A stretch of DNA of 64,000 nt from a virus (IMGVR_UViG_3300020419_000010:1-64000); one strand, 5' to 3'. Positions 3,784-50,250 are shown, counted from the first letter of the stretch. Notes: a model not told the origin generated them from the sequence alone. Numbers and translations: made by a program.

Positions 3784-3789
3784 TGCTAT

Positions 3790-3797
3790 AATAAATA
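3790..3797 (+). promoter_or_regulatory. T4-type late promoter (AATAAATA) upstream of cp12
   Basis: 7/8 match to TATAAATA, 22 nt before the cp12 ATG. Confidence 0.6.
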
Positions 3798-3819
3798 GTA
3801 GTAAATACCGAGTAATAAA

Positions 3820-29612: not shown

Positions 29613-29656
29613 ACTGTCACAAGGGGTTGACTACTGTTCAATCTATGCACTATACT
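29598..29656 (+). promoter_or_regulatory. Early cassette promoter 1 (degenerate dyad, TTGACT, TATACT)
   Basis: ATAGACA-N10-TGTCACA 29598-29621, TTGACT 29627, TATACT 29651; no CAACCAC. Confidence 0.65.
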
Positions 29657-29680
29657 AAGGAATATTATATTATTATTGAG

Positions 29681-30934
29681 TTGACAATTACATTACGACC
29701 ACATCAACAGCGAGCATTCACAGCAATGCGTGAGAACAACAAAGGTTCAGTTATAGTACCCACAGGTGGTGGTAAGACTATGGTTATGATTGAACACGCT
29801 CGTATGACATATTGTCAGAACTCAGTACCTAAAACTATTGTAGTGGTTGCACCTCGCATACTACTAGCAAATCAATTATGTTCAGAGTTTCTAGAACAGA
29901 ACCTAGACGGTTGGTACAATCAGTCTATCGAGGTTATACATTGCCACTCAGGAGAGACTCACTTCAAGTCAACTACTAAGACTGAGCAATTAGAGGAGTG
30001 GTATCACAATACACCTAAGAACCTTATCATATTTACTACATATCATTCATTACACAAGATTACAAATAGTCTTGATATTGAAGTTGACGTAGCATACTAT
30101 GATGAAGCACATAACTCAGTTACTAGACGATTCTTTGATGGTACTCAGGCAATGAGTCACAGATCAAGACAATCATATTTTTTCACAGCAACACCTCGTA
30201 TAGCACATCAACATGAGCGTAGTATGACTAACGAGAAAGTATATGGTAAGACACTTATCAATGTACCCGCACCAGAACTCGTAGAGCAAGGTCATATACT
30301 ACCACCAACTATCGTACCGTTTGAAGTTGATGCAACTAGAACCAGAGAAAATTGTCATGAAGTAGATGCAGAGTCAGTTGATGATATTATTGATACACTA
30401 GATGATACACACGCATCTAAGGTACTTGTAGCAGTTCCTAGTAGTGGTACGTTGCAAGGTATGATCTCTAAGACCACTCTATTGTATCGCTTGTCAGAGC
30501 GTGGATACGACACCTTACACATCACATCTAAGTTCGGTGCTATCATCAATGGTAAGAAGGTATCAAGAGAGTATTTCTTTGATACTCTTACATCATGGGG
30601 TAGAGACCCAGATAAGAAGTTTGTTATCTTTCACTATTCTATTCTTAGTGAAGGTATCAATGTTCATGGACTGACCCATTGCATCTTGTTAAGAAACCTT
30701 AACGTAGTTGAAATGGCACAGACTATTGGTAGAGTTATACGTCTAGATAAGAGAGATAGTAACAGGTTGCAGAGTGGAGAACTAACACCTTGCAAGTGGT
30801 CACTATATCATAAACCTACTGGTTACATTACAGTTCCAGTACACAAGACATCTAAGAGAACTATCAAGAGACTAGAATTAGTTTGTGATAGTATCTTTAA
30901 CAAAGGAGAACCACCACTTAGTATTGTTAGATGA
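29681..30934 (+). CDS. Superfamily 2 helicase (ResIII/DEAH-like)
   Basis: LRPHQ, PTGGGKT, DEAH, FTATP, ILSEGINV, QTIGRVIR; TTG start at 29681 inferred from promoter position. Confidence 0.88.
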   Translation: MTITLRPHQQRAFTAMRENNKGSVIVPTGGGKTMVMIEHARMTYCQNSVPKTIVVVAPRILLANQLCSEFLEQNLDGWYNQSIEVIHCHSGETHFKSTTKTEQLEEWYHNTPKNLIIFTTYHSLHKITNSLDIEVDVAYYDEAHNSVTRRFFDGTQAMSHRSRQSYFFTATPRIAHQHERSMTNEKVYGKTLINVPAPELVEQGHILPPTIVPFEVDATRTRENCHEVDAESVDDIIDTLDDTHASKVLVAVPSSGTLQGMISKTTLLYRLSERGYDTLHITSKFGAIINGKKVSREYFFDTLTSWGRDPDKKFVIFHYSILSEGINVHGLTHCILLRNLNVVEMAQTIGRVIRLDKRDSNRLQSGELTPCKWSLYHKPTGYITVPVHKTSKRTIKRLELVCDSIFNKGEPPLSIVR

Positions 30935-31512: not shown

Positions 31513-32039
31513 CATATAGCACAAGTGACGTCAGAGTAATTGACGGATATTTCCCAGACTGGTTAATAGATGACGTAGGTAAATACTTGTCAACTGATTT
31601 CCCTATGTACTATAACAATACACCATACGGAGACTATAAGAAAGCAAGATTCTGGGGTAATACTGTTATCAGGGATAACGAGTTTACAGGAGAGACACCT
31701 TGGTATTGGTTTTTTGCTTATCTTAATGAATGTATAATGAAAGATATATGTAAAGACCTACCTTTAAGTCATATCCATAGAGTTTTAGTCAATGCTCAAC
31801 ACCCACATCAAGTGAGTCAGACACATACAGATTTTAACCATAAAGCAACAAGTATCATATACCACGCATACGGTCAGAGTGGCGATACAACATTTGCTGA
31901 CGGTCACAGAGTGCCATTTAGAGAAGGTAGGTTAGTTATATTTGATTCCCAAAAGGAACATGATGGCGAACCACCTAGTGAAGATATAAGAATAACACTA
32001 GGAGTAATTGCACCACACAAAGGTGTGTCAGTATATTAA
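31509..32039 (+). CDS. 2OG-Fe(II) oxygenase-like protein
   Basis: VIDGYF, HTD, GDTTF, GRLVIFDS..EH, RITL. Confidence 0.8.
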   Translation: MTYSTSDVRVIDGYFPDWLIDDVGKYLSTDFPMYYNNTPYGDYKKARFWGNTVIRDNEFTGETPWYWFFAYLNECIMKDICKDLPLSHIHRVLVNAQHPHQVSQTHTDFNHKATSIIYHAYGQSGDTTFADGHRVPFREGRLVIFDSQKEHDGEPPSEDIRITLGVIAPHKGVSVY

Positions 32040-32107
32040 GTGTCACATAGTTTGTTGAAATCGTACGACAATCATATAATATAGAACTATCAAACTATTT
32101 CAACCAC
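32024..32107 (+). promoter_or_regulatory. Early cassette promoter 2
   Basis: TGTGTCA-N10-TGTCACA 32024-32047, TATAAT 32075, CAACCAC 32101, ATG 32109. Confidence 0.85.
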
Positions 32108-32108
32108 T

Positions 32109-32240
32109 ATGTCAAGAAAAGAATTTGAACTCATGTATGATGCTTTCAAGAACTATCATATCTACATGACACCAGAACAAAAAGAATTAGCAGAACAATT
32201 ATTGAATAGAGGTTTCTACAATACAGGTGCATCAAAATGA
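32109..32240 (+). CDS. Small early protein (43 aa, not in ORF track)
   Basis: MSRKEFELMYDAFKNYHIYMTPEQKELAEQLLNRGFYNTGASK; follows CAACCAC and is coupled to the next ORF. Confidence 0.75.
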   Translation: MSRKEFELMYDAFKNYHIYMTPEQKELAEQLLNRGFYNTGASK

Positions 32241-32458
32241 TGTATCCAGATATAAGAGACTTTCATAAACTTCAAGGTAAGAAAGTTGACATCAAACTAT
32301 CATGGGAACAACTCAATGATATTATGTACTACCTAGAATGGAAACTAACAGACATATCTGAATCAGGTAATGATCTAGAATTTCCAGAGGTAGAGGAAGC
32401 AATGCAATCACTTGAAGAACAACAGTATCAAATTTACAAACAGGGGTGCGAAGCATGA
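32237..32458 (+). CDS. Small early hypothetical protein
   Basis: 73-aa ORF, ATGA coupling. Confidence 0.7.
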   Translation: MMYPDIRDFHKLQGKKVDIKLSWEQLNDIMYYLEWKLTDISESGNDLEFPEVEEAMQSLEEQQYQIYKQGCEA

Positions 32459-32694
32459 AGCATACAATCACACTAGATGACATGGAAATCACAGCACTCA
32501 ATATCCTATTAGAAGGGGAGAGTGAGATTATGGTAGAGTCTAGACTCAATACTACTGGCAATGTTAATCCAGATAGACGAGAGATCTTAATAAATCTAGT
32601 TTATACCAAAGTCTTTGATGCCTGTTGGAAAGCAGATAAAGACCCGAATAACGATTATGACTTAATGAAAAACTATGATAGGGTTCTAGCGTGA
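32446..32694 (+). CDS. Small early hypothetical protein
   Basis: ORF with probable ATG at 32455; TGA stop lies in the left arm of dyad 3. Confidence 0.7.
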   Translation: MRSMKHTITLDDMEITALNILLEGESEIMVESRLNTTGNVNPDRREILINLVYTKVFDACWKADKDPNNDYDLMKNYDRVLA

Positions 32695-32768
32695 CAGTTA
32701 TATTACTGGCACACTACTTGTTTAAATCGTAGAATTATACCTTTATAATGATTATATACTTCAACCAC
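32690..32768 (+). promoter_or_regulatory. Early cassette promoter 3
   Basis: CGTGACA-N10-TGGCACA 32690-32713, TATAAT 32744, CAACCAC 32762, ATG 32775. Confidence 0.85.
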
Positions 32769-32774
32769 AAAGCA

Positions 32775-33077
32775 ATGGACACAATTACAAACAAAAGACA
32801 ACTTGATGATTTTGTTGATTATGTATGGTCATTCTATGGTAGTGATGATGATTCACTCTATCCAATAGAAGGACTAACAAAGTTATTAATCCACAAAGCA
32901 ACTTCTATATACTTCAAAGCAATTATCTCATCAAGAGGTAACATCACATGGGGAGACGGAGACTCACTTGATAGAGAGCGTGTAAGAGATATATTAACTG
33001 GTGTTATGGGCATGACCATAGACTACAACCCACAAAAGGGAATTACAGTTCAAGATTTAAAGGATTTAGCACTATGA
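32775..33077 (+). CDS. Early hypothetical protein
   Basis: MDTITNKRQLDDFVDYVWSFY...WGDGDSLDRERVRD; start reassigned to the ATG after CAACCAC. Confidence 0.75.
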   Translation: MDTITNKRQLDDFVDYVWSFYGSDDDSLYPIEGLTKLLIHKATSIYFKAIISSRGNITWGDGDSLDRERVRDILTGVMGMTIDYNPQKGITVQDLKDLAL

Positions 33078-33205
33078 TTGAATTAACACATGATGAAATC
33101 CGTAGAGCATCTACTACTAAACTACGCAATATTCTTAAAGAGGATATTGACGTAGATCTAGATGACATGATTAACTATGAACTTTATATTAGGGAGTTTA
33201 GTTAA
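33074..33205 (+). CDS. Small early protein (43 aa, not in ORF track)
   Basis: MIELTHDEIRRASTTKLRNILKED...; coupled to neighbours at both ends. Confidence 0.65.
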   Translation: MIELTHDEIRRASTTKLRNILKEDIDVDLDDMINYELYIREFS

Positions 33206-33436
33206 ATGACTAGATTATGGGAATACCCAGAGGAAAATCCCTATGGAGAGTGTACTTATGATGGTAAAGTTGAAGTTTATTATAACATGACTTCATTCTT
33301 AGATGATGCAGAAGTACATCAAATTTGGGAAATTGTGGGTAAAGCAATGGACAGAAAAGGTATTGTCACAACAGACAATGAACAACTCTCAGTAAGAGTG
33401 TATGATGAAATTAATTCAGAGGACAATGATGAATAG
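33206..33436 (+). CDS. Small acidic early protein
   Basis: 76-aa ORF with GGGAG upstream. Confidence 0.7.
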   Translation: MTRLWEYPEENPYGECTYDGKVEVYYNMTSFLDDAEVHQIWEIVGKAMDRKGIVTTDNEQLSVRVYDEINSEDNDE

Positions 33437-33560
33437 ATCAAAACTTGAACAACTCATTACTGATTTTGTAATAGAGAATAATCTTGATGCTTCATTTGTA
33501 CAACAAACAGAAGGATTAACATACGTTAGATTTACAGTAGAAGAGGACAATCATGAATAG
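33426..33560 (+). CDS. Small early protein (44 aa, not in ORF track)
   Basis: MMNRSKLEQLITDFVIENNLDASF...; GAGG upstream; fills the gap exactly. Confidence 0.6.
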   Translation: MMNRSKLEQLITDFVIENNLDASFVQQTEGLTYVRFTVEEDNHE

Positions 33561-33744
33561 TAATCAGATCAAAATTGAAACATTCGATAAGTACATCATG
33601 CGAGGTGGAGATCAATCACTCTCAAATATAGAGGACTTATGTGAATATGGTTTCATGCTATTAGGTGCTGAACCAAATGATGAAAATGTATTCAATGACG
33701 TAGTTATTGGAACTATTCAGAAACTAACACAAAATTTGACTTAA
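33553..33744 (+). CDS. Small early hypothetical protein
   Basis: 63-aa ORF with GAGG upstream. Confidence 0.65.
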   Translation: MNSNQIKIETFDKYIMRGGDQSLSNIEDLCEYGFMLLGAEPNDENVFNDVVIGTIQKLTQNLT

Positions 33745-33762
33745 CATTATTATTAGAGTATT

Positions 33763-33957
33763 ATGGAAGTTGTTATTCAACCTATGAATCTATTTGAATC
33801 AGAAATTTGCGTAGATTGTGGAAAACCTTGTCACATGGGTTCGGGAAGATTTGTTAATCGTTATGCTTACTACGGAGACGAGGTAGAAGGTTGGCGGTGT
33901 GGCGAATGTTCAGCAGAACTAGATAGGTTACAGGAAGAAATTGGAGGATTTGAATGA
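33763..33957 (+). CDS. Small putative Zn-finger protein
   Basis: CVDC...CGEC; GSGRFVNR. Confidence 0.7.
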   Translation: MEVVIQPMNLFESEICVDCGKPCHMGSGRFVNRYAYYGDEVEGWRCGECSAELDRLQEEIGGFE

Positions 33958-34094
33958 AACCCTATTTTTTATACATCTTAATCGGACTTGTATTTTTATC
34001 ACTCATTAGAACATCATTTAAAATTGATAGGAGTGAAAGAAACAATAGATTATACGAGGAATTATGCAAAGTAGATCAGGAGTATTGTAAATGA
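33954..34094 (+). CDS. Small membrane-anchored protein (46 aa, not in ORF track)
   Basis: MKPYFLYILIGLVFLSLIR hydrophobic N-terminus, C-terminal LCKVDQEYCK; GGAGG upstream. Confidence 0.65.
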   Translation: MKPYFLYILIGLVFLSLIRTSFKIDRSERNNRLYEELCKVDQEYCK

Positions 34095-34303
34095 TAACAC
34101 CAGAATCTAACGGTTACTTCACTAAAACAAGTGATAAACAATACGATAGAAACAAGTATAAGATTAATTGTAAAGACGGTAGTTCGCTCATTACATACGA
34201 TTATAATGATGTTATAGAGAACTATTGGCATAAATCTAACTTAATAGAGAATGTAGAAGTACTGGACATTAAACCTAAGAGATCAGGCGGTAAGGGATTT
34301 TGA
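34091..34303 (+). CDS. Small early hypothetical protein
   Basis: 70 aa ending VEVLD...KGF. Confidence 0.7.
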   Translation: MITPESNGYFTKTSDKQYDRNKYKINCKDGSSLITYDYNDVIENYWHKSNLIENVEVLDIKPKRSGGKGF

Positions 34304-34401
34304 AATCAGATACATTACTAAGGATACTCAAAGTTGTTAGAGTCAAGAAGGTTAAGTATAAACCTACTCGTAAACACCATAATATGCACTTATACGGTTA
34401 A
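34300..34401 (+). CDS. Small basic peptide (33 aa, TTG start, not in ORF track)
   Basis: MKSDTLLRILKVVRVKKVKYKPTRKHHNMHLYG; overlaps both neighbours' stop and start codons. Confidence 0.5.
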   Translation: MKSDTLLRILKVVRVKKVKYKPTRKHHNMHLYG

Positions 34402-34970
34402 TGAAACATACATTATTTCCCATACAATACTACCATTGCAAGATACATAACCATAAAGAGTTATTTGGTTCATTATTAGATAGTGCTAAACATTTACTCA
34501 AAGATGCTCAGGGTAAATGGAATTGTAGTGTTTATACAACATATTTTGAAGAGCAAGATGTAGTAGATGCTGATGAACTAGGCAAGGTTCTCGCACCCTA
34601 TTTGTATCAATATTTCCCCACACATTGCAACATAGATTTAATAAACTCATGGTTAAACTTATATAATAGTGGACACACACAAGAACCACACCATCATGTA
34701 AATTTCCCTGACTTTATTAATTTTAGTGGAGTAATATTCATACAGTATAAGAAGGGAGAAGATGCTAACTTTTATTTTGAGAATTTAAACTTAGAGCATA
34801 CAGTACTAGGTTACACACATATATTCGAGCAAGATCAGATATTAACACCTGATATAACGGAAGGCGATTTGTTGTTATTTCCCTCGTTTGTACGACATGG
34901 AGTAAAGACTCAGAAATTTGATAATAACAGATTAACGCTCAGTTTCAATCTTGCTGTGACACCTATGTAA
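34401..34970 (+). CDS. TIGR02466-like putative 2OG-Fe(II) oxygenase
   Basis: LFP, SWLNLY, QEPHHH, FSGV, EGDLLLFPSFVRHGV, RLTLSFN; paralogue of 30931. Confidence 0.88.
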   Translation: MKHTLFPIQYYHCKIHNHKELFGSLLDSAKHLLKDAQGKWNCSVYTTYFEEQDVVDADELGKVLAPYLYQYFPTHCNIDLINSWLNLYNSGHTQEPHHHVNFPDFINFSGVIFIQYKKGEDANFYFENLNLEHTVLGYTHIFEQDQILTPDITEGDLLLFPSFVRHGVKTQKFDNNRLTLSFNLAVTPM

Positions 34971-35028
34971 GTGTCACATAGTTTGACACAAGTGCTAGAC
35001 GTATGATTATAATGGATATATCAACCAC
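34955..35028 (+). promoter_or_regulatory. Early cassette promoter 4 (perfect dyad)
   Basis: TGTGACAC-N8-GTGTCACA 34955-34978, TTGACA 34983, TATAAT 35008, CAACCAC 35022, ATG 35036. Confidence 0.9.
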
Positions 35029-35035
35029 AGATAAC

Positions 35036-35626
35036 ATGATTTTCAACTTCTTAGAAACAAGTTTCCAAAACGTAAGATCATCTAAGAGAACTGACCAGTT
35101 GCATGATGCACTACTAACTCAGTTCCTAGAAACATATCCAGAACTAAAATCATTACATTGGAGACAAGAGTATAAACTACAAAAAGACGCATTTGGCGGT
35201 ACATTCGATATTGATATTGTAGGACTTGATGACAATGGTTATATCAAGTATGCAATTCTTGCTAAGGCAATCAACAGCAATGTCAACAAGAATATCAAGA
35301 ACTATGCAAATACTACCATAGGCGAAGCATCAAGACTATTCTATGCACCTATCGTAAATGAAACAATCGAAAAGATATTATTTGTTTCATTACTACCTAG
35401 AACAGCACCTAGATTCAATAAGAAGGGAGAAGTTGTAGGATTTGATGACGTCAAGTCAGCGAAGGATAGAACTAATATCAAACCAGTACTAAAAACACAG
35501 TATGGTAACAAAGTACAATCTATTGATCTATTCTATACTATTGATGATGTAAGATCAGGATTAACTAACGAGGACTATAATACAATAACACCTAGTTTTA
35601 TTGATTCATTTGTATTCGAGGTTTAA
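35036..35626 (+). CDS. Putative PD-(D/E)xK-fold (restriction-endonuclease-like) nuclease
   Basis: QEY......FDIDIVG...AILAK...KN.KNY....GEA pattern resembling type II REase cores. Confidence 0.5.
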   Translation: MIFNFLETSFQNVRSSKRTDQLHDALLTQFLETYPELKSLHWRQEYKLQKDAFGGTFDIDIVGLDDNGYIKYAILAKAINSNVNKNIKNYANTTIGEASRLFYAPIVNETIEKILFVSLLPRTAPRFNKKGEVVGFDDVKSAKDRTNIKPVLKTQYGNKVQSIDLFYTIDDVRSGLTNEDYNTITPSFIDSFVFEV

Positions 35627-35628
35627 TC

Positions 35629-35799
35629 ATGAAAACATTTGTAGCAACATTCTCAGAGTATAAAGCAATCTGGTTACAGAGGTGTGATGAAGATGACCGC
35701 ACCATACCAACATTTGAGCAGTATTTACATGCCACTAAACTAGGCAGAGACTACTCAGCAATCTATGATAAGTACGGTTTCTTAAAGGAGGACTATTAA
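35629..35799 (+). CDS. Small early protein (56 aa, not in ORF track)
   Basis: MKTFVATFSEYKAIWLQRC...; GAGG upstream, abuts the next ATG. Confidence 0.65.
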   Translation: MKTFVATFSEYKAIWLQRCDEDDRTIPTFEQYLHATKLGRDYSAIYDKYGFLKEDY

Positions 35800-36033
35800 A
35801 TGACATACAAAACATTTGAGGAAATTTCAATAGGAGACATTGTATCATACAATCGGGTATGGGGATATGTTTTAGCAAGATTTGATGACGTTAAACAAAT
35901 TAAAATAGTAGATGAATATACTGACGATAAGATCATGGTAGATTATAGAAGAGTGCAGTTATTACAGAAATTCGATCTCAATACTACCTATGAAGATGAT
36001 ATGTTGAGACAAGACCCCAGACGGTTAAAATAG
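35800..36033 (+). CDS. Small early protein (SH3/KOW-like beta pattern)
   Basis: ISIGDIVSY...GYVL; GGAGG upstream; TAG stop inside dyad 5. Confidence 0.7.
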   Translation: MTYKTFEEISIGDIVSYNRVWGYVLARFDDVKQIKIVDEYTDDKIMVDYRRVQLLQKFDLNTTYEDDMLRQDPRRLK

Positions 36034-36075
36034 TGTCACACACATTATAGTAATCGACATTCACTCGACTATAAT
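36017..36075 (+). promoter_or_regulatory. Early cassette promoter 5
   Basis: CCAGACG-N10-TGTCACA 36017-36040, TATAAT 36070; CAACCAC displaced to 36164 by a structured leader. Confidence 0.8.
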
Positions 36076-36083
36076 GAATACAT

Positions 36084-36145
36084 GGGATAAGTTAGTACTC
36101 ACACCTCTAAGGTCAAAGTTGAGTGAAGCACCTCTTGACTATCCC
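36084..36145 (+). ncRNA. Candidate structured 5'-leader RNA element
   Basis: Nested stems GGGAU/AUCCC plus AGUUAG/UUGACU, UACUCA/UGAGUG, ACCU/AGGU between the -10 box and the first ATG. Confidence 0.6.
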
Positions 36146-36171
36146 TAATCAATTTAATTAATTCAACCACA

Positions 36172-36372
36172 ATGAATGCAAACAAATTAAAGCAAGTCAG
36201 ACTTTCAGTATTACTTGATAAGTTAACTGAACTAGGTTGGGATTATTCTTGTAATAGAATGTCTAGATCTGGTATGCAAATCTATGATGAGATTATGCAA
36301 TATGTTGGAGTTCTAGATGCTAACGAGCATTGGAATGAAGATGTTTATGCTGATTCTAACGGAGACTGGTAG
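36172..36372 (+). CDS. Small early hypothetical protein
   Basis: 66 aa; ATG 1 nt after CAACCAC. Confidence 0.75.
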   Translation: MNANKLKQVRLSVLLDKLTELGWDYSCNRMSRSGMQIYDEIMQYVGVLDANEHWNEDVYADSNGDW

Positions 36373-36373
36373 T

Positions 36374-36697
36374 ATGAACTTCACAGATAGAGAACTAGGA
36401 TTAATCGCTCATAAACTAGGTATGGCATATTGCGACCTAGACACACCCAATAGTGGTAACACATGGACATTTGAGAGATATGGTAAAGACGCAGTTGTAG
36501 GAGCATTTAAGAAGGTTCAAGAAGAAATTAAGAACAGAGGATTAAATGCTGACACACTTGAACTAAAACGTCAACCGTACCGTAGTCCAGTTACAAAAGA
36601 GTCCGCCTTTGGACTTGATAGAGACTTTGAGGTGCTAGGATTATATCGTAAAGATCAATCCAAGATCAGGAAAAGACCAACCACATTTTATTGCTAG
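36374..36697 (+). CDS. Early hypothetical protein
   Basis: MNFTDRELGLIAHKL...; GGAG upstream of ATG 36374. Confidence 0.7.
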   Translation: MNFTDRELGLIAHKLGMAYCDLDTPNSGNTWTFERYGKDAVVGAFKKVQEEIKNRGLNADTLELKRQPYRSPVTKESAFGLDRDFEVLGLYRKDQSKIRKRPTTFYC

Positions 36698-36921
36698 TCA
36701 TGACCAAAAGAGAACTAACAGATCAACAGTTTAAAGACTTAAAAGAGTTATATGTTGATAGAATCGTTGACAATATGTCAATGAAGGATTTAATCATCTA
36801 TGCTACCGAGGATATGCAGAAGTGGATAGACTCACTAACATTCAATGATGCAATGGTAGAAATAGAGGAGTATTTTGATGAGTATTTTACAGACACTATC
36901 GAGGAAGTAATCAATGGTTAA
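36691..36921 (+). CDS. Small acidic early protein
   Basis: LKELYVDRIVDNMS.KDL...; probable ATG at 36700. Confidence 0.7.
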   Translation: MLVMTKRELTDQQFKDLKELYVDRIVDNMSMKDLIIYATEDMQKWIDSLTFNDAMVEIEEYFDEYFTDTIEEVING

Positions 36922-37177
36922 ACAACAGTATGTTATGCAGTTCACAACAAGAACTGACTATTACCAAAGTTTTGAAATTTCATTTGATGAATTTTGGGAA
37001 GATTATTGTAAAGAGTGTGATTTTGATGAAGAGGAGTCAGATCTCTCAATGTGGGAGAATAGAGACTTGATGGAAATTGCATGGGATTTCATACTCAAAA
37101 ATCCAGACAAGTATCGTTATGGAAATTCTGATTATGATAATGAAGAGATCATGAACTACAACTTACAGAGGATTTAA
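36914..37177 (+). CDS. Highly acidic small early protein
   Basis: EISFDEFWEDYCKECDFDEEESDLSMWE. Confidence 0.75.
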   Translation: MVKQQYVMQFTTRTDYYQSFEISFDEFWEDYCKECDFDEEESDLSMWENRDLMEIAWDFILKNPDKYRYGNSDYDNEEIMNYNLQRI

Positions 37178-37180
37178 ACA

Positions 37181-37393
37181 ATGACTGAACAGATTTATAG
37201 AGTACTGGTATCTAAACAAATAGAATACTCAGTTGAAGTTGAAGCGGAGAATCCACAGGAAGCAATGGAACTAATAGAAGAAGAGATACAAGAGAATGAA
37301 GGTATCTACAACTATGAGATCGAAGCATCATGTGAAGAGTTCAATGTAACATCAGCAGAACTACATGATGGATACTATGTGACAGCATCATAA
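37181..37393 (+). CDS. Highly acidic small early protein
   Basis: YSVEVEAENPQEAMELIEEEIQE; stop lies within dyad 6. Confidence 0.75.
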   Translation: MTEQIYRVLVSKQIEYSVEVEAENPQEAMELIEEEIQENEGIYNYEIEASCEEFNVTSAELHDGYYVTAS

Positions 37394-37456
37394 GTGTCTA
37401 CTTTTTGTTTAAATTGCCCTTATAGTCCATTATAATAATATTAATGATTCAACCAC
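37378..37456 (+). promoter_or_regulatory. Early cassette promoter 6
   Basis: TGTGACA-N10-TGTCTAC 37378-37401, TATAAT 37431, CAACCAC 37450, ATG 37461. Confidence 0.85.
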
Positions 37457-37460
37457 TATC

Positions 37461-37622
37461 ATGAAGAAATTAAACATCACAGTCACATCAGGTCAGTACA
37501 ACCTATTATGGTTAATGATCGCAGAGCATGGCGAACAGATCGTTGCTAATTCCAATGGAGACATGGATATGCAGACTTTCGATAATCTATTTGATGCAGT
37601 ATGTCAGGCGGATTATGTGTAA
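37461..37622 (+). CDS. Small early protein (53 aa, not in ORF track)
   Basis: MKKLNITVTSGQYNLLWLMIAEHGEQ...; directly after CAACCAC. Confidence 0.75.
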   Translation: MKKLNITVTSGQYNLLWLMIAEHGEQIVANSNGDMDMQTFDNLFDAVCQADYV

Positions 37623-37845
37623 TAGAGGAATTCCACCAATAAGGAAAACAAGTCCTAGAAAGTACTTAGAGGGAGATCACTACCTCGATTATAAACTTAC
37701 TTTCGATCAAGTAGAAGAAATACTTGATTCAATCGAGTGGATAGCAGAGGAGAATGAAGAACACATGAAGGTTCTAATATCCGCCTATTACGCTCTAAGA
37801 GACCAAAACGGTTACACTATACCAAAAGAATGGAGGAACGGTTAA
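37615..37845 (+). CDS. Small early hypothetical protein
   Basis: 3' part of track ORF 37528..37845; ATG 37615 overlaps the upstream stop. Confidence 0.6.
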   Translation: MCNRGIPPIRKTSPRKYLEGDHYLDYKLTFDQVEEILDSIEWIAEENEEHMKVLISAYYALRDQNGYTIPKEWRNG

Positions 37846-38111
37846 TGAATTTTAAAGAAGAGATTTATGAAATAGCATTCGGAGACAATGCTATAAACAG
37901 AGATTTTGATGAACTCGAAGTAATCGAGAGAATACAATCATATAGTGATGGGAGTAACCCAGTACTAATAGAGGAAGCATGGAATGAAGCAGAGGAACTA
38001 AACACTTCACTCAGAGAACTATCAGATCAGGACTTGATAGAATGCAGACAGGCATTAATTGATAGAACTAATCTTATTATGTCAGCACTTGATGAGATAG
38101 GAGTAGAATAA
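37830..38111 (+). CDS. Acidic early hypothetical protein
   Basis: FKEEIYEIAFGDNAINRDF; probable ATG at 37845. Confidence 0.7.
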   Translation: MEERLMNFKEEIYEIAFGDNAINRDFDELEVIERIQSYSDGSNPVLIEEAWNEAEELNTSLRELSDQDLIECRQALIDRTNLIMSALDEIGVE

Positions 38112-38359
38112 TGTCATATTGTGATGTATGTGGCAACTATGATGAGTCACATATCGAAGATATTAAAGAGAATATCAAAACAGTTCCAGATGAGGACTAT
38201 CAACCAGATTTATATTATTATTGGGATAGTTGGACAGGACTATGTGATGAGGATTATGACTGGCGAGAGAAATATCCAAAAGTTGACTGTATGTGTGAGA
38301 TCTGTTTTGATATAGCAAATCAAAATAAGGAAATCAAGTGGGAGTGTACCAGTTTATGA
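38111..38359 (+). CDS. Small Cys-rich (putative Zn-binding) early protein
   Basis: CDVC...CMCEIC; stop lies within dyad 7. Confidence 0.7.
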   Translation: MSYCDVCGNYDESHIEDIKENIKTVPDEDYQPDLYYYWDSWTGLCDEDYDWREKYPKVDCMCEICFDIANQNKEIKWECTSL

Positions 38360-38423
38360 GGTGTCACACATATTTCCCATTTAATGTAATTATCGGTTAT
38401 ATTAAATAATATAAGACAACCAC
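38345..38423 (+). promoter_or_regulatory. Early cassette promoter 7
   Basis: TGTACCA-N10-TGTCACA 38345-38368, TATATT 38398, CAACCAC 38417, ATG 38431. Confidence 0.8.
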
Positions 38424-38430
38424 AGAAATT

Positions 38431-38628
38431 ATGAGCAGTTTAACTAATACAGCAATCTTTGAAGATATTGCAGACAAGTGGGATATAGTAGAATGCACCA
38501 ACGGAGTTGGAGTATTTGAACTCACTTATGAAGGAGAGCATACAGGAGACACATTCGACACCGAAGCAGAGTGTTGGCACTTCATTAAGCACGCAGTTTA
38601 CAATGAATTTGATTCAAGGTGTGAGTGA
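38431..38628 (+). CDS. Small acidic early protein
   Basis: 65 aa; single-gene cassette. Confidence 0.75.
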   Translation: MSSLTNTAIFEDIADKWDIVECTNGVGVFELTYEGEHTGDTFDTEAECWHFIKHAVYNEFDSRCE

Positions 38629-38641
38629 GACAGTTGAGACT

Positions 38642-38719
38642 TGTGACAGTCTATATACTGACCACACACCGCCCACTTTGCCCTTTTAGTCCATTACAAT
38701 AGAAACATACAACAACCAC
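38642..38719 (+). promoter_or_regulatory. Early cassette promoter 8
   Basis: TGTGACA-N10-TGACCAC 38642-38665, TACAAT 38695, CAACCAC 38713, ATG 38726. Confidence 0.8.
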
Positions 38720-38725
38720 AGAAAA

Positions 38726-38926
38726 ATGCCACAATTCAAATATACAATCGAAACACCAAAATTATTCAAAAGTGAGGTTTTTACAGATGATTTACAGAAA
38801 GCAGAAGATTTATGTTTTGACATGGGTCTTGACTACGAGTATTCTTGTGTTAGAGATAATGCCACAGGCGAAATTGTTTACGAAATGGGGAATGTTATGG
38901 GTTTAGTTGAGGAGGGCATAGTATAA
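38726..38926 (+). CDS. Small early hypothetical protein
   Basis: 66 aa after CAACCAC. Confidence 0.75.
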   Translation: MPQFKYTIETPKLFKSEVFTDDLQKAEDLCFDMGLDYEYSCVRDNATGEIVYEMGNVMGLVEEGIV

Positions 38927-39180
38927 TGTCAGCATTTAATAGACTCAATCATCTAAAAGAGTTAACAACACCAGTTATAGACGATAATGCAGGCACTATC
39001 TCAGTCACATTTACATTTGACGAGTTACACGCATTTCAGCAACACGTTGATTGGTGCATTTATGAGCAAGATCAACCAGTAAATGATAATTTACAGTCAT
39101 TTATTGATAAATTACTCTATAATAAGAGAAATACAGCACCTAAAATCAAGCAAGTTAATCTACCGAAGGAGGAATGGTAA
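38926..39180 (+). CDS. Small early hypothetical protein
   Basis: 84 aa, TAATG coupling, GAGG upstream. Confidence 0.7.
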   Translation: MSAFNRLNHLKELTTPVIDDNAGTISVTFTFDELHAFQQHVDWCIYEQDQPVNDNLQSFIDKLLYNKRNTAPKIKQVNLPKEEW

Positions 39181-39181
39181 A

Positions 39182-39421
39182 ATGAGTTTTGAAACATGGT
39201 TAAAACAATGCCCTGACCCTAGTAGATTCGCAACTGAATATGTTGATATTAGGTCAGATATTCAGAACGTAATTGATACTTATGACCGCCCAGAGTGGAA
39301 GAAGATCAACTTTAATAAGGATAAATTAGATGATCTAGTTTATCAAGTTTACGATCAAGACTGGTCAGAGTGGAACGATTTTATTGCTTATTTAATAGAC
39401 AATGAGGTTACATGGTCATGA
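39182..39421 (+). CDS. Small early hypothetical protein
   Basis: MSFETWLKQCP...; GGAGG upstream of ATG 39182. Confidence 0.7.
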   Translation: MSFETWLKQCPDPSRFATEYVDIRSDIQNVIDTYDRPEWKKINFNKDKLDDLVYQVYDQDWSEWNDFIAYLIDNEVTWS

Positions 39422-39585
39422 ATGAAAAGTTATTCAAACAAATAAGATTTCCTACAAGAGAGAAATTACTTGAATATCGTTATGAACAGTTCCAAGAGTG
39501 GTTAAATAAATGCCCACTTGTTGTAACAGATTATCAGGATTTTACAGATCGTTTTCAAGTTACTTTCGATTTGGAAGCAGACTAA
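39412..39585 (+). CDS. Small early protein (~57 aa, not in ORF track)
   Basis: MVMNEKLFKQIRFPTREKLLEYRYEQFQEWLNKCP...; shares F..WL..CP with the preceding ORF. Confidence 0.65.
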   Translation: MVMNEKLFKQIRFPTREKLLEYRYEQFQEWLNKCPLVVTDYQDFTDRFQVTFDLEAD

Positions 39586-39588
39586 ATA
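39581..39588 (+). promoter_or_regulatory. Late-type promoter ACTAAATA inside the early region
   Basis: Same octamer as those before the late genes at 45373 and 50237. Confidence 0.45.
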
Positions 39589-39590
39589 CA

Positions 39591-39779
39591 ATCGGCATGA
39601 GGTGGGTACACTATACGATTCCCTATCTGTAAGTCCGATATGATACGAAATCGTATCACTAGGCAGTAAGCATACGAACTTTAAAACACCAACTTTAATT
39701 AGATGTGGCAGTTGCAATCTTACATAAGACCTAATCAAAGACCTTACCATAAAGAGAATTAAATTTGTTATGTGGTTGT
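39591..39779 (+). ncRNA. Candidate structured non-coding RNA
   Basis: No + strand ORF over 20 codons; helices AUCGG/CCGAU, AGGUGGG/CCUAUCU, perfect inverted repeat UGAUACGA/UCGUAUCA, UAGG/CCUA, GUAAG/CUUAC, CAACU/AGUUG. Confidence 0.55.
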
Positions 39780-39852
39780 GACAGTTTAATTACTTACACA
39801 TGGTGAGGTCTTTTTTCACCTTTATATGATTATAATAGAATCAAACAACCAC
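39777..39852 (+). promoter_or_regulatory. Early cassette promoter 9
   Basis: TGTGACA-N10-TTACACA 39777-39800, hairpin GGTGA..TCACC 39802-39820, TATAAT 39831, CAACCAC 39846, ATG 39859. Confidence 0.85.
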
Positions 39853-39858
39853 AGGATT

Positions 39859-40227
39859 ATGAGCAAATTAAACACTTATCAGCAATTAGTAGTAGATGCA
39901 ATCAATACATACGGAAGCGGAGACTGGAAAAATTGGATCTCAGTTCATTATGTTCATGAGTCAGGTTACTCAAATATTATATGTCATTCTGAAATAATAG
40001 GTAAAGTATTCTATGAGTATAAGAAGAGAGACCTAGACATGGAAGAGTACACAGAAATAATAATGGATAAGACTAAGAAAGCACCAGTTGATGTAATTTT
40101 CATGATGGATAGAAAAGGAGCAGAGGAGAGTTTTAACGAAACACAGATAACCAGATACAGAAATATGTTTGTAAAGCAAGGTTTCACAGTTGTTAATGTA
40201 CATAAGAAAGCATTAGCACAATATTAA
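39859..40227 (+). CDS. Early hypothetical protein
   Basis: MSKLNTYQQLVVDA...; start reassigned to the ATG after CAACCAC. Confidence 0.75.
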   Translation: MSKLNTYQQLVVDAINTYGSGDWKNWISVHYVHESGYSNIICHSEIIGKVFYEYKKRDLDMEEYTEIIMDKTKKAPVDVIFMMDRKGAEESFNETQITRYRNMFVKQGFTVVNVHKKALAQY

Positions 40228-40245
40228 TCAAAATACAGGTGTGAG

Positions 40246-40321
40246 TGTGACAGTTATATTAGTGTCACTTCGCACCAGAAAACACCTCTATATTCGCTAT
40301 AATATAGACATAAGCAACCAC
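40246..40321 (+). promoter_or_regulatory. Early cassette promoter 10
   Basis: TGTGACA-N10-TGTCACT 40246-40269, TATAAT 40298, CAACCAC 40315, ATG 40337. Confidence 0.88.
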
Positions 40322-40336
40322 ACAGGAATTTTTAAA

Positions 40337-40663
40337 ATGAGAATCATTGAAAAGAACATGAACAGAGCAATCAGAGGTCAGAGAAATTGGGCATCTGGTA
40401 ATACAACTGTATTCACTACTGACAATGGTTTAGAGTCAACAGTATATCTACATGGCAATCATATCGCAACTTTCGATCATGTACATCAGAATCTTTATAT
40501 CTTTGATGGCGGTTGGCAGTCTAACACCACTAAGTCTAGACTCAATGCACTTTGCTATGAGTTCAACACAGGTTTCAAAGTTATTCAACGTGACTGGACA
40601 TGGTACTTAGTCAACTTCCTAGGCACTAAGCAGTTATTCAACTCAGGCATGGAGGTTGCATAA
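40337..40663 (+). CDS. Conserved phage early hypothetical protein
   Basis: MRIIEKNM...VYLHGNHIA...DGGWQSNTTKSRLNAL, a motif I recognise from phage early regions. Confidence 0.8.
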   Translation: MRIIEKNMNRAIRGQRNWASGNTTVFTTDNGLESTVYLHGNHIATFDHVHQNLYIFDGGWQSNTTKSRLNALCYEFNTGFKVIQRDWTWYLVNFLGTKQLFNSGMEVA

Positions 40664-40842
40664 TGTCAAATTTAGAATATGATGCAATGGCAGTAATGGA
40701 GCAAATACACATGGCAGAATCTAGGCATATGCAGATGGGTGCTTTATGTTCCTATCTACTACAATATCCTGATATGACAATCAGAGATTTCTTTGCAATG
40801 GCAAGTAAGGAATTAGAAGAGCAGGAGGAAGATTTATGTTAA
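40663..40842 (+). CDS. Small early protein (59 aa, not in ORF track)
   Basis: MSNLEYDAMAVMEQIH...; GGAGG upstream, TAATG coupling. Confidence 0.7.
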   Translation: MSNLEYDAMAVMEQIHMAESRHMQMGALCSYLLQYPDMTIRDFFAMASKELEEQEEDLC

Positions 40843-41033
40843 GAAGAGAAAAGTCATATTACTCAATCTTTGAACCAGTAAGGGAACTAATCGAAGAATA
40901 CGCAAACGATCATTTTTCAACATTTGGATACTATCCCGCCACAGTTCGATTATATCCACCAGTAGGCGAAGGATTACCGAGGGAATTAAGTTATGAAGAA
41001 TACCAGTTTATCATAACTGGAAAGGAAGTATAA
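40836..41033 (+). CDS. Small early hypothetical protein
   Basis: 65 aa, GGAGG upstream. Confidence 0.7.
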   Translation: MLRREKSYYSIFEPVRELIEEYANDHFSTFGYYPATVRLYPPVGEGLPRELSYEEYQFIITGKEV

Positions 41034-41061
41034 CACATTTTCAGAGTATTTCCCAATCGAG

Positions 41062-41149
41062 TGTGACGATTTTTTTAGTTGCACACCGCACCAGAGAAAG
41101 CACCCCAAACAGGTGCTTTTTATGGTACAATTAATATATAAGCAACCAC
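41062..41149 (+). promoter_or_regulatory. Early cassette promoter 11
   Basis: TGTGACG-N10-TTGCACA 41062-41085, TACAAT 41126, CAACCAC 41143, ATG 41161. Confidence 0.75.
41097..41121 (+). terminator. Rho-independent terminator-like hairpin embedded in cassette 11
   Basis: AAAGCACC-ccaaaca-GGTGCTTT running into a T tract. Confidence 0.55.
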
Positions 41150-41160
41150 AGGTAACACAC

Positions 41161-41505
41161 ATGAATTTATTTGACGCAGTTCCAGTTATCGTTAACGATA
41201 TGTTCTCAGGATACAGACCAGAGCAGAGCATATCCACAGGAGAGAAAGCAATGGCAGTAAAGAACAGTATATTAGCGACAGATTCGCTAGATTATGGTAA
41301 TATGAAGAGAGCGACATATTCGCATGTTCACACTATGGTATCGAACGCAATCGACCTATTAATAAACGATAAAGACACATTTTGGAATGTACTATATCCA
41401 GACAATCTAACACCAGAGCAGAAACTATCCCCACTATTCAGATATAACACACTATACGGAGATACAATCTATTCTACCGAAGTCCCAACACTAAAATTTC
41501 AGTAA
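41161..41505 (+). CDS. Early hypothetical protein
   Basis: MNLFDAVPVIV...; start after CAACCAC. Confidence 0.75.
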   Translation: MNLFDAVPVIVNDMFSGYRPEQSISTGEKAMAVKNSILATDSLDYGNMKRATYSHVHTMVSNAIDLLINDKDTFWNVLYPDNLTPEQKLSPLFRYNTLYGDTIYSTEVPTLKFQ

Positions 41506-41517
41506 GGAGCAATAACA

Positions 41518-41763
41518 ATGATTTTTAACTATGATGACTGTACATTTGAAGCATACGAGAGAGACGGATATATGTATTACAGAGAGGTTTCCCAAGGCGG
41601 AGACCCATTATACGACTTTATTAAGTTAGAGTGGCATCAGTTCGATTTTATCAACACCACAGAGGACTTAGTAGAGATATTAGAGGATATGGAGTCATGT
41701 TTCGATAATGTCATAAATACGCATGACCAGACAGAGCAAACACCTTATAGTTTTTATCATTAA
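41518..41763 (+). CDS. Acidic hypothetical protein
   Basis: 81 aa, AGGAG upstream. Confidence 0.7.
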   Translation: MIFNYDDCTFEAYERDGYMYYREVSQGGDPLYDFIKLEWHQFDFINTTEDLVEILEDMESCFDNVINTHDQTEQTPYSFYH

Positions 41764-42389: not shown

Positions 42390-42446
42390 AATGTACAAAT
42401 AAATGTATGTGTGTGTTCAATAGGTCTCGGTACATTGCTACCTCGG

Positions 42447-42475
42447 ACTGTAACACATCAGGCGAGAGTTGTCAA
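42447..42475 (-). promoter_or_regulatory. Minus-strand sigma70-type promoter
   Basis: TTGACA-N17-TACAGT with extended TG on the minus strand. Confidence 0.55.
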
Positions 42476-42522
42476 GTAATGCGAGGAAATTCTGACAGTT
42501 CGCCCTGACTGTTTTGCCCCTC

Positions 42523-42550
42523 TTGACTCTACCGACAGATCTGGTATAAT
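42523..42550 (+). promoter_or_regulatory. Sigma70-type promoter
   Basis: TTGACT-N16-TATAAT with TGn extension. Confidence 0.6.
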
Positions 42551-42580
42551 ATATAATGAGCAGACTTTGCCCTGATCGCT

Positions 42581-42784
42581 TTGCCCTCTTTGACTTCGCT
42601 GGCAGTATTTCCCCCTGTTGTATTAGAGACAGTTCCCCCTGTTACTATTATAATAGGTAAATCTCATGCTGGTTACTATTGGAAGTATAATTATACAGGG
42701 TGCGAACCAATGGGGTATTTCTTTAATTACTCACAGGCATTGCAAGATGCTTTAACCTACTCAACTAAACACTATGCCGACTAA
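42581..42784 (+). CDS. Hypothetical protein (start uncertain)
   Basis: 67-aa ORF overlapping the next start. Confidence 0.45.
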   Translation: MPSLTSLAVFPPVVLETVPPVTIIIGKSHAGYYWKYNYTGCEPMGYFFNYSQALQDALTYSTKHYAD

Positions 42785-42962
42785 GTATAAATTACTACTA
42801 GACTTATACGACATGGGAGGGTTGCCACCTGATGAACAGATAGACCTTATCCAGTTCTTAATAGATACAGAGTTAAGGGAGGAGTTACACCAGTATGCAC
42901 CCATATGTGAGTATTTCATTCTAGAAGGACTATGTTATGATGTAGCAATTCATGATACATAA
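42774..42962 (+). CDS. Hypothetical protein
   Basis: EQIDLIQFLIDT...CEYFILEGLC. Confidence 0.7.
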   Translation: MPTKYKLLLDLYDMGGLPPDEQIDLIQFLIDTELREELHQYAPICEYFILEGLCYDVAIHDT

Positions 42963-43151
42963 GACAGTTAATTACAGTTGTTAATTAACACTTAGGACAG
43001 TTATTTCATGCTGTTTGTTATTATATTGGGTTGCCGATATAAAAGGGTTCCTAGTTCATAAGCTATAAAAGTATCCCAGAGGGGTAGATATAATTCGATT
43101 CTTTGTCAAAGTCTATATACAAAAAATTCCCCAGGTAGAAAATCACTCTCT

Positions 43152-50211: not shown

Positions 50212-50217
50212 AACTGC

Positions 50218-50225
50218 TATAAATA
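50218..50225 (+). promoter_or_regulatory. T4 late promoter TATAAATA (second ACTAAATA at 50237)
   Basis: Perfect consensus upstream of gp25. Confidence 0.8.
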
Positions 50226-50250
50226 AAACTGTAACGACTAAATAATCGTA

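Follow-up and report, generated by a model that had tools for sequence, protein, structure and literature searches.

An invariant CAACCAC leader box in a putative T4-like cyanomyovirus and a candidate hairpin RNA whose loop could read it

What is the role of a heptamer that stands, without a single change, just in front of the first gene of one small operon after another? The question is raised by IMGVR_UViG_3300020419_000010:1-64000, a stretch of 64,000 nucleotides (nt), hereafter the window, which is the first 64 kb of a 92,432-bp IMG/VR fragment estimated to be ~50% complete. Judged by its sequence, the source virus is an uncultured T4-like cyanomyovirus, and 32-41 kb would be its early region of small genes. 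In this region ten cassettes, each a promoter followed by a short leader and a first gene, carry CAACCAC close to the first ATG. The reading that we favour, tentatively, is that the heptamer is an mRNA leader box that is paired by a hairpin RNA from 39740-39816 to control early translation. The evidence for the box is given first, then the evidence for the hairpin, and rival explanations are taken up where the data bear on them.

A first-pass annotation made from the sequence alone had listed ten exact copies of CAACCAC, 1-15 nt before the first ATG. All ten were found on the + strand where it had placed them, with spacings to the ATG of 1, 6, 7, 1, 4, 7, 6, 6, 15 and 11 nt in the order below. 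An eleventh + strand copy lies within a coding region.

32101..32107, + strand: leader box of cassette 1; TATAAT at 32075-32080, ATG at 32109
32762..32768, + strand: leader box of cassette 2; TATAAT at 32744-32749, ATG at 32775
35022..35028, + strand: leader box of cassette 3; TATAAT at 35008-35013, ATG at 35036
36164..36170, + strand: leader box of cassette 5, which has a long leader; nearest TATAAT at 36070-36075, 88 nt 5'; ATG at 36172
37450..37456, + strand: leader box; TATAAT at 37431-37436, ATG at 37461
38417..38423, + strand: leader box; TATATT at 38398-38403, ATG at 38431
38713..38719, + strand: leader box of the operon that ends in the 39740-39810 hairpin; TACAAT at 38695-38700, ATG at 38726
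39846..39852, + strand: leader box; TATAAT at 39831-39836, ATG at 39859
40315..40321, + strand: leader box; TATAAT at 40298-40303, AGGA between the box and the ATG at 40337
41143..41149, + strand: leader box of cassette 10; TACAAT at 41126-41131, AGGT between the box and the ATG at 41161
36678..36684, + strand: eleventh copy, inside the end of the open reading frame (ORF) 36317-36697; 15 nt further on is ATG 36700, the start of an internal gene without a Shine-Dalgarno (SD) sequence

The annotation had suggested a count of CAACCAC by position class, and this count shows that the signal is positional. On both strands together the heptamer occurs 32 times in the window, compared with 8.64 ± 2.95 in dinucleotide shuffles (0/100 reach 32). 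Such totals mean little because reversed-pattern controls reach 13 and 27 in the 92-kb record; the signal is the position of the copies. Within 32101-41149 fall 11/18 of the + strand copies. When a strict automatic rule was applied to the whole record, leader-like copies were forward only (9/21 forward, 0/14 reverse), and four control heptamers gave 0-1 leader-like copies each. The copies at 40315 and 41143 are missed by the strict rule for one reason alone, an open in-frame reading frame upstream.

Comparison with related phages, also suggested by the annotation, was made on metagenomic relatives. No cultured phage is close in DNA; megablast and blastn searches of the region against 50,697 phage records returned short matches or none. 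Clade members were gathered by a helicase search of IMG/VR and metagenome contigs. Contigs that share the box have helicases 78-100% identical to that of the window, and in three of them the DNA identity of matched early-region segments is ~72-95%. A search with early proteins returned only the relatives G001 and G002. The pattern TATAAT-N8-13-CAACCACAG was searched in IMG/VR, and the full architecture was present in 1 (G001) of 80 examined among at least 116 stretches. One member of the set of 13 contigs used below, L287, looks like the window itself.

CAACCAC is invariant in the leaders of these 13 contigs. They contain 75 leader-type copies, 64 of them unique, by a rule that also lets in one or two coding-region copies such as 36678. 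All three best-covered contigs keep the heptamer in every cassette (30/30). When orthologous cassettes of three contigs were compared without gaps, the heptamer differed at 0/210 positions, and the 12-nt flanks differed at 108/360 and 112/360 (~30%). The base after the heptamer is A in 53/64 unique copies (27/30 in the three best-covered contigs), and the full form of the box is usually CAACCACA. Only 5 other + strand copies lie 3' of the helicase in the 13 contigs. At the site matching 36678, G002 reads CAACATC followed by a strong SD. A near match, CAACCAG at 39073 before ATG 39083, was rejected as a variant box, given that G001 has ACG at that ATG.

Before each early promoter (32040-41100) there is also a dyad, GTGACAG(TT)-N8-10-TGTCAC(A), which in many cases takes in the TGA stop of the preceding gene. 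Its presence in the Prochlorococcus phage P-RSM4 (Kyanoviridae; L167) and in L027, L028 and L312 makes it family-wide, and it may serve as a protein site or form a weak stem-loop. The heptamer is the better conserved of the two elements, as the annotation had observed: the dyad arms differ at 1-3 positions between cassettes, the heptamer at none. We found no report of a CAACCAC motif in the literature searched; Doron et al. 2016 (Syn9 transcript mapping) may hold an earlier description; the accessible parts of Sullivan et al. 2010 (PMC3037559) and Thompson et al. 2016 (PMC5082946) do not mention such a motif.

Does the box belong to the promoter or to the start codon? All leader-type copies (75/75) have the same, sense orientation. 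For 71 of them the distance to the ATG was 0 nt (4 copies), 1 (11), 3 (6), 4 (5), 6 (25), 7 (8), 11 (4), 12 (1), 14 (1), 15 (4) or 16 (2), with a mode of 6-7 nt (33/71). From the -10 box to the leader box the distances in the ten cassettes of the window are, in order, 20, 12, 8, 88, 13, 13, 12, 9, 11 and 11 nt. The annotation had claimed that the box tracks the ATG and not the promoter. This holds only in part: the cassettes that separate the two bear it out, and it is not decided by the 8/10 window cassettes in which the -10 box, too, is close (8-13 nt). In cassette 5 the box is 1 nt from the ATG and 88 nt from the -10 box, as reported; in every contig this cassette has a -10-like box 60-88 nt off behind a hairpin, or none, with the leader box 0-1 nt from the ATG. 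In cassette 1 the leader box is separated from the -10 box by 20 nt and from the ATG by 0-3 nt. In cassette 10 both distances are 11 nt in the window; in G002 and L290 the -10 box is ~33-35 nt away and the ATG 3-6 nt.

In ten model transcripts the box is predicted to be unpaired (0.73-0.99). An RNA-level role, as the annotation had argued from cassette 5, is favoured because the box is never far from the ATG (0-16 nt), stays with it at promoter distances of 20-88 nt, has one orientation and is predicted to be single-stranded. We consider it likely that the box has an RNA-level role of some kind in the ribosome-binding region. At these distances all leader-type copies fall inside a 30S footprint. 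Parts of the window are contained in 13 public RNA runs, and in the 4 runs examined some assembled contigs bridge promoters and boxes, for example at 31983-32358.

Gene calls for the SD counts that follow were crude and made for this analysis. GGAG or GAGG was found between -20 and -4 in 0/10 first genes versus 15/27 internal genes, which bears out the contrast drawn by the annotation. A weak AGGA or AGGT occurs in 2/10 first genes, and one or the other intervenes at spacings of 11 nt or more between box and ATG. On the first genes the box takes the place of the SD. Strong SD cores are unusually common in the internal early genes (32237-41763), and the majority of genes in the rest of the record lack them, which suggests that translation inside the early operons depends on coupling.

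The box is not the general SD substitute of this phage. SD cores are missing from 54/83 other genes of the record, which also lack C/A tracts; the mean longest A/C run is 4.8 in other SD-less genes and 4.3 in the background, compared with 9.1 in the ten first genes. Two host-based explanations, pairing with 16S ribosomal RNA (rRNA) and a host-wide signal, were also rejected. The picocyanobacterial 16S rRNA ends in GCGGCTGGATCACCTCCT, and the complement GTGGTTG is present in 0/71 complete cyanobacterial 16S sequences, the best match being 6/7 (GTGGTTT near position 887). CAACCACA is not enriched in one Prochlorococcus genome (1.4 Mb; 26 copies, control 21) or in one Synechococcus genome (2.1 Mb; 65 copies, control 127).

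More distant relatives have the same cassette plan with other leaders. Those with 46-59% helicase identity, P-RSM4 included, have a GTGACAGTT..TGTCACA dyad, often over the stop codon, followed by TATAAT and a short leader. At the position of the box their leaders carry variable C/A tracts such as AACAAACAAA or CAAACAACCAACACC, and one cassette has GGAGG. L298:1322-2520, from a relative with 58% helicase identity, has the leaders AGAGUCAAACAAACACACCUC and GACAAACAACCAACACC, which are intermediate between the AACAAACAAA and CAACCAC types.

These data bear on the first rival explanation, a non-SD translation enhancer or ribosome standby site, in which the unstructured C/A tract that opens these very short leaders would alone load host ribosomes, perhaps via ribosomal protein S1, and no trans-acting RNA would take part. 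The position of the box at the SD site, mostly 6-7 nt from the ATG, fits such a role, as do the SD counts, the AGGA or AGGT that intervenes when the box is 11 nt or more away, the variable C/A tracts of the sister clades with GGAGG in one cassette, and the strong SD beside a degenerate box in G002 at the site of internal copy 36678. There is precedent as well: ribosomes of Escherichia coli translate the tobacco mosaic virus (TMV) 5' untranslated region (UTR) without an SD (PMC13577412, excerpts), and A/U-rich S1 standby sites have been described (PMC2176067, excerpts). However, seven unchanging positions in 64 unique cassettes are not what a compositional signal should show, and the sister tracts do vary. 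Most other genes of the phage have neither an SD nor a C/A tract, so the host ribosome needs neither, and cassettes with an SD-like AGGA keep the box unchanged. The enhancer proposed by the annotation is thus weakened by the lack of a 16S complement, of host use and of a tract on other SD-less genes, and keeps the fit of its composition. As the whole explanation we find it unlikely.

The annotation had also suggested that CAACCAC is the seed target of an RNA at 39591-39779. Of its proposals this one has gained most, with the element relocated to 39740-39816. The relevant features lie in a 240-nt untranslated stretch.

39740..39810, + strand: long, conserved hairpin whose stem shows compensatory changes; within the 240-nt untranslated stretch that follows ORF 39412-39585
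39771..39778, + strand: anti-box TGTGGTTG at the apex of the hairpin, exactly complementary to CAACCACA and without change in the contigs that cover it (6/6)
39811..39816, + strand: TTTTTT run directly 3' of the hairpin, resembling an intrinsic terminator

The hairpin has a minimum free energy (MFE) of -27.4 kcal/mol and a z-score of -4.56, and 0/200 shuffles fold as well. RNAalifold on six contigs gave 29 pairs, 8 of them with compensatory changes. Pairing is kept in 96% of cells. Shuffles give 1.7 ± 1.1 pairs changed on both sides (0/500 reach the observed 8), and slid controls give no more than 3. Upstream of the hairpin there are indels and no sign of a fold; 39586-39800 folded as one structured RNA gives a z-score of 0.19, and of this stretch the 3' hairpin alone is supported. 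A terminator scan also flagged 39811-39816, with a shorter local stem. As far as folding predictions go, hairpin and U-run together resemble a terminator for the operon that begins with the 38713 cassette, and the hairpin doubles as the stem-loop before the 39846 cassette's promoter. The window gave no match in Rfam and tRNA scans.

The apex reads GUUAUG-UGGU-UGUGAC, with a UGGU loop and two G.U wobbles as its top pairs, and its terminal eight bases, UGUGGUUG, are the exact complement of CAACCACA. Antisense regulation calls for complementarity of at least 7 nt, and TGTGGTTG offers this to CAACCACA at targets 0-16 nt from the ATG. The seed is predicted to be displayed by the UGGU loop and the two wobble pairs on a conserved fold, with U6 after the stem. 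Copies of the heptamer outside leaders are poorly kept (7/9 in G001, 1/5 in G002); the reverse complement at 39772 is the only such copy conserved in all relatives, and the anti-box is the sole one retained in G002. A variant in which the anti-box pairs in cis with the 39846 box on a read-through RNA was set aside: the pairing appears in the MFE and centroid structures with a z-score of -1.64, and 12/200 shuffles are equal to it.

Two further features of the hairpin may be coincidences. Its 5' strand (39754-39771) resembles the SELEX consensus aaAAUUGUUAUGUAA obtained for T4 RegA (PMC3014915, excerpts), and G002 reads AAAAUUGUUAUGUGG there, identical to it at 13/15 positions. The apex also spells a mini-ORF, ATG TGG TTG TGA.

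The mechanism that we propose for these elements is as follows. CAACCAC would be a cis element of the mRNA, placed where the ribosome binds the first gene after each early promoter, at the site that holds an SD in other T4-type early cassettes, and would serve as a common address. Its reader would be the apical octamer of the hairpin RNA, the terminator-like 3' end of the early operon starting at 38713. As this RNA accumulated, presumably in a stable form, loop and leader would form 8 bp at 0-16 nt from the AUG, and the duplex would either block 30S binding or alter the stability of the mRNA by exposing it to decay. The first cistrons of all early operons would be turned down together. Because the hairpin RNA would come from an early operon, the result would be delayed negative feedback on the early class. 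With one fixed loop and ~10 targets, neither the box nor the loop would be free to drift, the box would be specific to the clade, and host and late genes would do without it. The unstructured make-up of the box, C and A only, probably also permits SD-independent initiation, as the C/A tracts may in the sister clades. That the box is paired by the hairpin RNA to control early translation is a proposal we hold tentatively, a little short of probable.

The broader form of the proposal, an anti-leader regulon in which one terminator-hairpin RNA reads an SD-replacing 8-nt address on all early operons and so times early shut-off, is possible and more speculative. If it is true, box and loop would be fixed as a pair inside each lineage and replaced as a pair between lineages, a lineage-specific code which could keep co-infecting relatives from cross-regulating each other. 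A dedicated non-SD box with a matching hairpin RNA would also provide a concrete, testable mechanism for the timing of expression in a phage group that is among the most abundant in the ocean. We know of no settled account of how T4-like cyanophages end early expression. They are described as lacking the MotA/AsiA system of T4 (PMC5780444, excerpts).

Several points weigh against the pairing of leader and hairpin. All six hairpin sequences come from close relatives, and the alignment used to test the structure is the one from which it had been derived. No base varies in the upper 25 nt of the hairpin, a part that contains the GTGACAG arm common to all cassettes; its conservation may therefore have another cause. 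There is only one anti-box, and GTGGTTG is not rare, with 14 + strand copies in the 64 kb; by the crude calls the other 13 lie inside ORFs, 4890 being uncertain. A covariance model of the hairpin matches only this clade. In the sister-clade DNA examined, from phages with AACAAACAAA-type leaders, no convincing leader-complementary loop was found, so co-variation of loop and leader between clades is unsupported. Finally, the metatranscriptome contigs cover the region but carry no information on ends, strand or level.

P-RSM4 has a structured element close to a promoter (L167:2335-2435), in which a 5' GUCGAAACAAA pairs with a 3' UUUGUUUCGAC and is followed by a U-run. The element is conserved in L027 near 4115, L028 near 5379 and L025 near 12168, and its fold has a z-score of -1.28. 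Modelled in this way, it could be a C/A leader sequestered by its own complement. Rfam searches of P-RSM4, L027 and L028 gave no match, the P-RSM4 element included.

On double-stranded DNA the anti-box is also simply an inverted copy of the same site, which weighs against pairing between RNAs and leads to a second rival, a DNA operator. Here a protein of phage or host would bind CAACCACA shortly downstream of each early promoter, and the inverted copy at 39771-39778 that flanks the promoter of the 39846 cassette, and so switch off or tune early transcription. The box begins 8-13 nt beyond the -10 box, approximately +2 to +7 of the transcript, in 22/30 cassettes from three contigs, and how T4 early promoters are shut off is not fully understood (PMC3014915, excerpts). 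Yet an operator would not be expected to hold one orientation in all leader copies or to go with the ATG when 20-88 nt separate it from the promoter, and a single asymmetric site of 7-8 bp is short for a repressor. The inverted copy lies exactly at the apex of a hairpin with compensatory changes, which points to single-stranded display. We judge the operator very improbable.

A third rival keeps the box in the mRNA and replaces the hairpin RNA with a phage protein that binds or cleaves early mRNAs at this sequence, a functional analogue of T4 RegA or RegB. An invariant, clade-specific box found only on early first cistrons, inside the ribosome-binding region, is what such a protein would use, and T4 provides the precedent: RegB cuts GGAG in initiation regions and RegA binds at or just 5' of the AUG (PMC3014915, excerpts). 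No candidate protein was identified and neither regA nor regB was found on these fragments; a search of five fragmentary contigs with Pfam Translat_reg (PF01818, regA) gave no match, the controls of that search being equally silent. The box is C-rich, whereas RegA sites are A+U-rich and include the AUG and RegB requires GGAG (same excerpts), and the complementary hairpin apex is left unexplained. This explanation seems quite improbable.

A -10 box with 5-6/6 matches is found upstream in 9/10 cassettes, and the -35 is weak or absent in several. A consensus scan of the whole region found 73 promoter-like sites, which is not above the 63.8 ± 8.1 of shuffles. There is a local hairpin before every promoter (-6.1 to -14.1 kcal/mol versus shuffle means of -2.2 to -4.4), which may act as a terminator or attenuator. 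Homology between the window, G001 and G002 breaks at cassette borders, in two cases at the box itself. In T4-type phages, PeSL (promoter-early stem-loop) elements, composed of a stem-loop, a sigma-70-like promoter, an SD and an ATG, have been tied to cassette shuffling (Arbiol et al. 2010, PMC2839356, and Comeau et al. 2014, PMC4122927, excerpts).

The heptamer might be chiefly a recombination patch, kept as a short homology for cassette exchange (of PeSL type or like an integron core) with no role in expression. Some junctions agree with this: the G001-G002 match ends at 17387, right after CAACCACaATG; the match between the window and G001 resumes at 36153, 11 nt before a box; and the cassette 10 leader of G002 resembles the cassette 1 leader. 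PeSL crossovers between the SD and the -10 box have been demonstrated (PMC2839356, excerpts). But seven bases are far too short for homologous recombination, most breakpoints lie elsewhere, at dyads and gene ends, and exchange demands neither invariance nor a fixed orientation beside a start codon. We find this scarcely credible. A contig joint from 37011 back to 33223, a step of 3,789 nt, was seen in two RNA runs (X1 and X2); it implies a relative with another cassette order, or a circular or duplicated form, and recalls PeSL mini-circles.

The setting of the cassettes is as follows. PHROG matches include baseplate hub and wedge, tail fibres, a helicase, several 2-oxoglutarate (2OG)-Fe(II) oxygenases and a tryptophan halogenase. 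From the helicase (29645-30934) to ~42.4 kb there are ~37 small ORFs, all on the + strand, and the block of small ORFs (32-42 kb) is flanked by T4-like structural and replication genes. In P-RSM4 the syntenic block comes after the helicase and dam genes. Beyond the block, 42390-43151 is non-coding and has repeated GACAGTT and TTTGCCC words without the CAACCAC box. It contains the best sigma-70 match of the region (TTGACT-16-TATAAT, 42523-42550), and is possibly a different kind of control region or an RNA gene. Words similar to T4-type late promoters, TATAAATA, occur at 3784-3819, 50212-50250 and 88490-88529, just 5' of structural genes. A single ORF of 7,076 codons (52771-74001) lies beside the baseplate genes and presumably encodes a giant structural or fibre protein.

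How does the proposed pairing compare with known systems? One comparison is with antisense RNAs whose hairpin loops occlude ribosome-binding sites, namely the c4 RNA of phages P1/P7 (Rfam RF01695) and the anti-SD motif in the 3' UTR of Staphylococcus aureus icaR. There, as proposed here, a short single-stranded motif on a folded RNA is complementary to the initiation region of the target, and the regulator lies within the units that it controls. The present case, a prediction from sequence, would differ in that one 8-nt loop addresses ~10 operons through a dedicated non-SD box, and in that the regulator is the terminator hairpin of an early operon, with no Rfam match.

Leaders that work by composition provide a second comparison. 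Gallie and Kado 1989 reportedly dealt with the TMV omega or poly(CAA) leader in E. coli. Like TMV omega and S1 standby leaders, the box is a G-poor, unstructured tract that replaces the SD, and the sister clades carry (A)ACAAACAAA-like tracts. Those leaders are compositional and tolerate change, whereas the box is invariant and absent from the many other SD-less genes of the phage.

RegB and RegA of T4 also use a short motif in the initiation regions of early, and not of late, mRNAs for coordinated post-transcriptional shut-off (PMC3014915, excerpts). Unlike the C-rich box, the motif cut by RegB is GGAG, the SD itself, and RegA recognizes sites rich in A+U, which include the AUG and have no strict consensus (same excerpts). 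The box is invariant and abuts the AUG in only 4/71 copies, which is not the arrangement of a T4 RegA operator.

PeSL elements, finally, resemble the cassettes as a whole: stem-loop, promoter, short leader and ATG are repeated between small ORFan genes in a plastic T4-like region, and the cassettes go with gene replacements between close relatives. The differences are that an invariant non-SD box replaces the SD (SD in 0/10), that the -35 is weak and that the stem-loop is mostly the GTGACAG..TGTCAC dyad overlapping the upstream stop codon. The word 'cyanophage' does not occur in either PeSL paper (PMC2839356, PMC4122927). By their sequence the early cassettes appear to be a PeSL-like variant and not a typical member, because the defining SD is absent. 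PeSL-like early cassettes would thus extend to cyanomyoviruses, cultured P-RSM4 included, with lineage-specific C/A tracts in place of the SD, and such leaders are relevant to translation initiation in hosts where SD use is rare.

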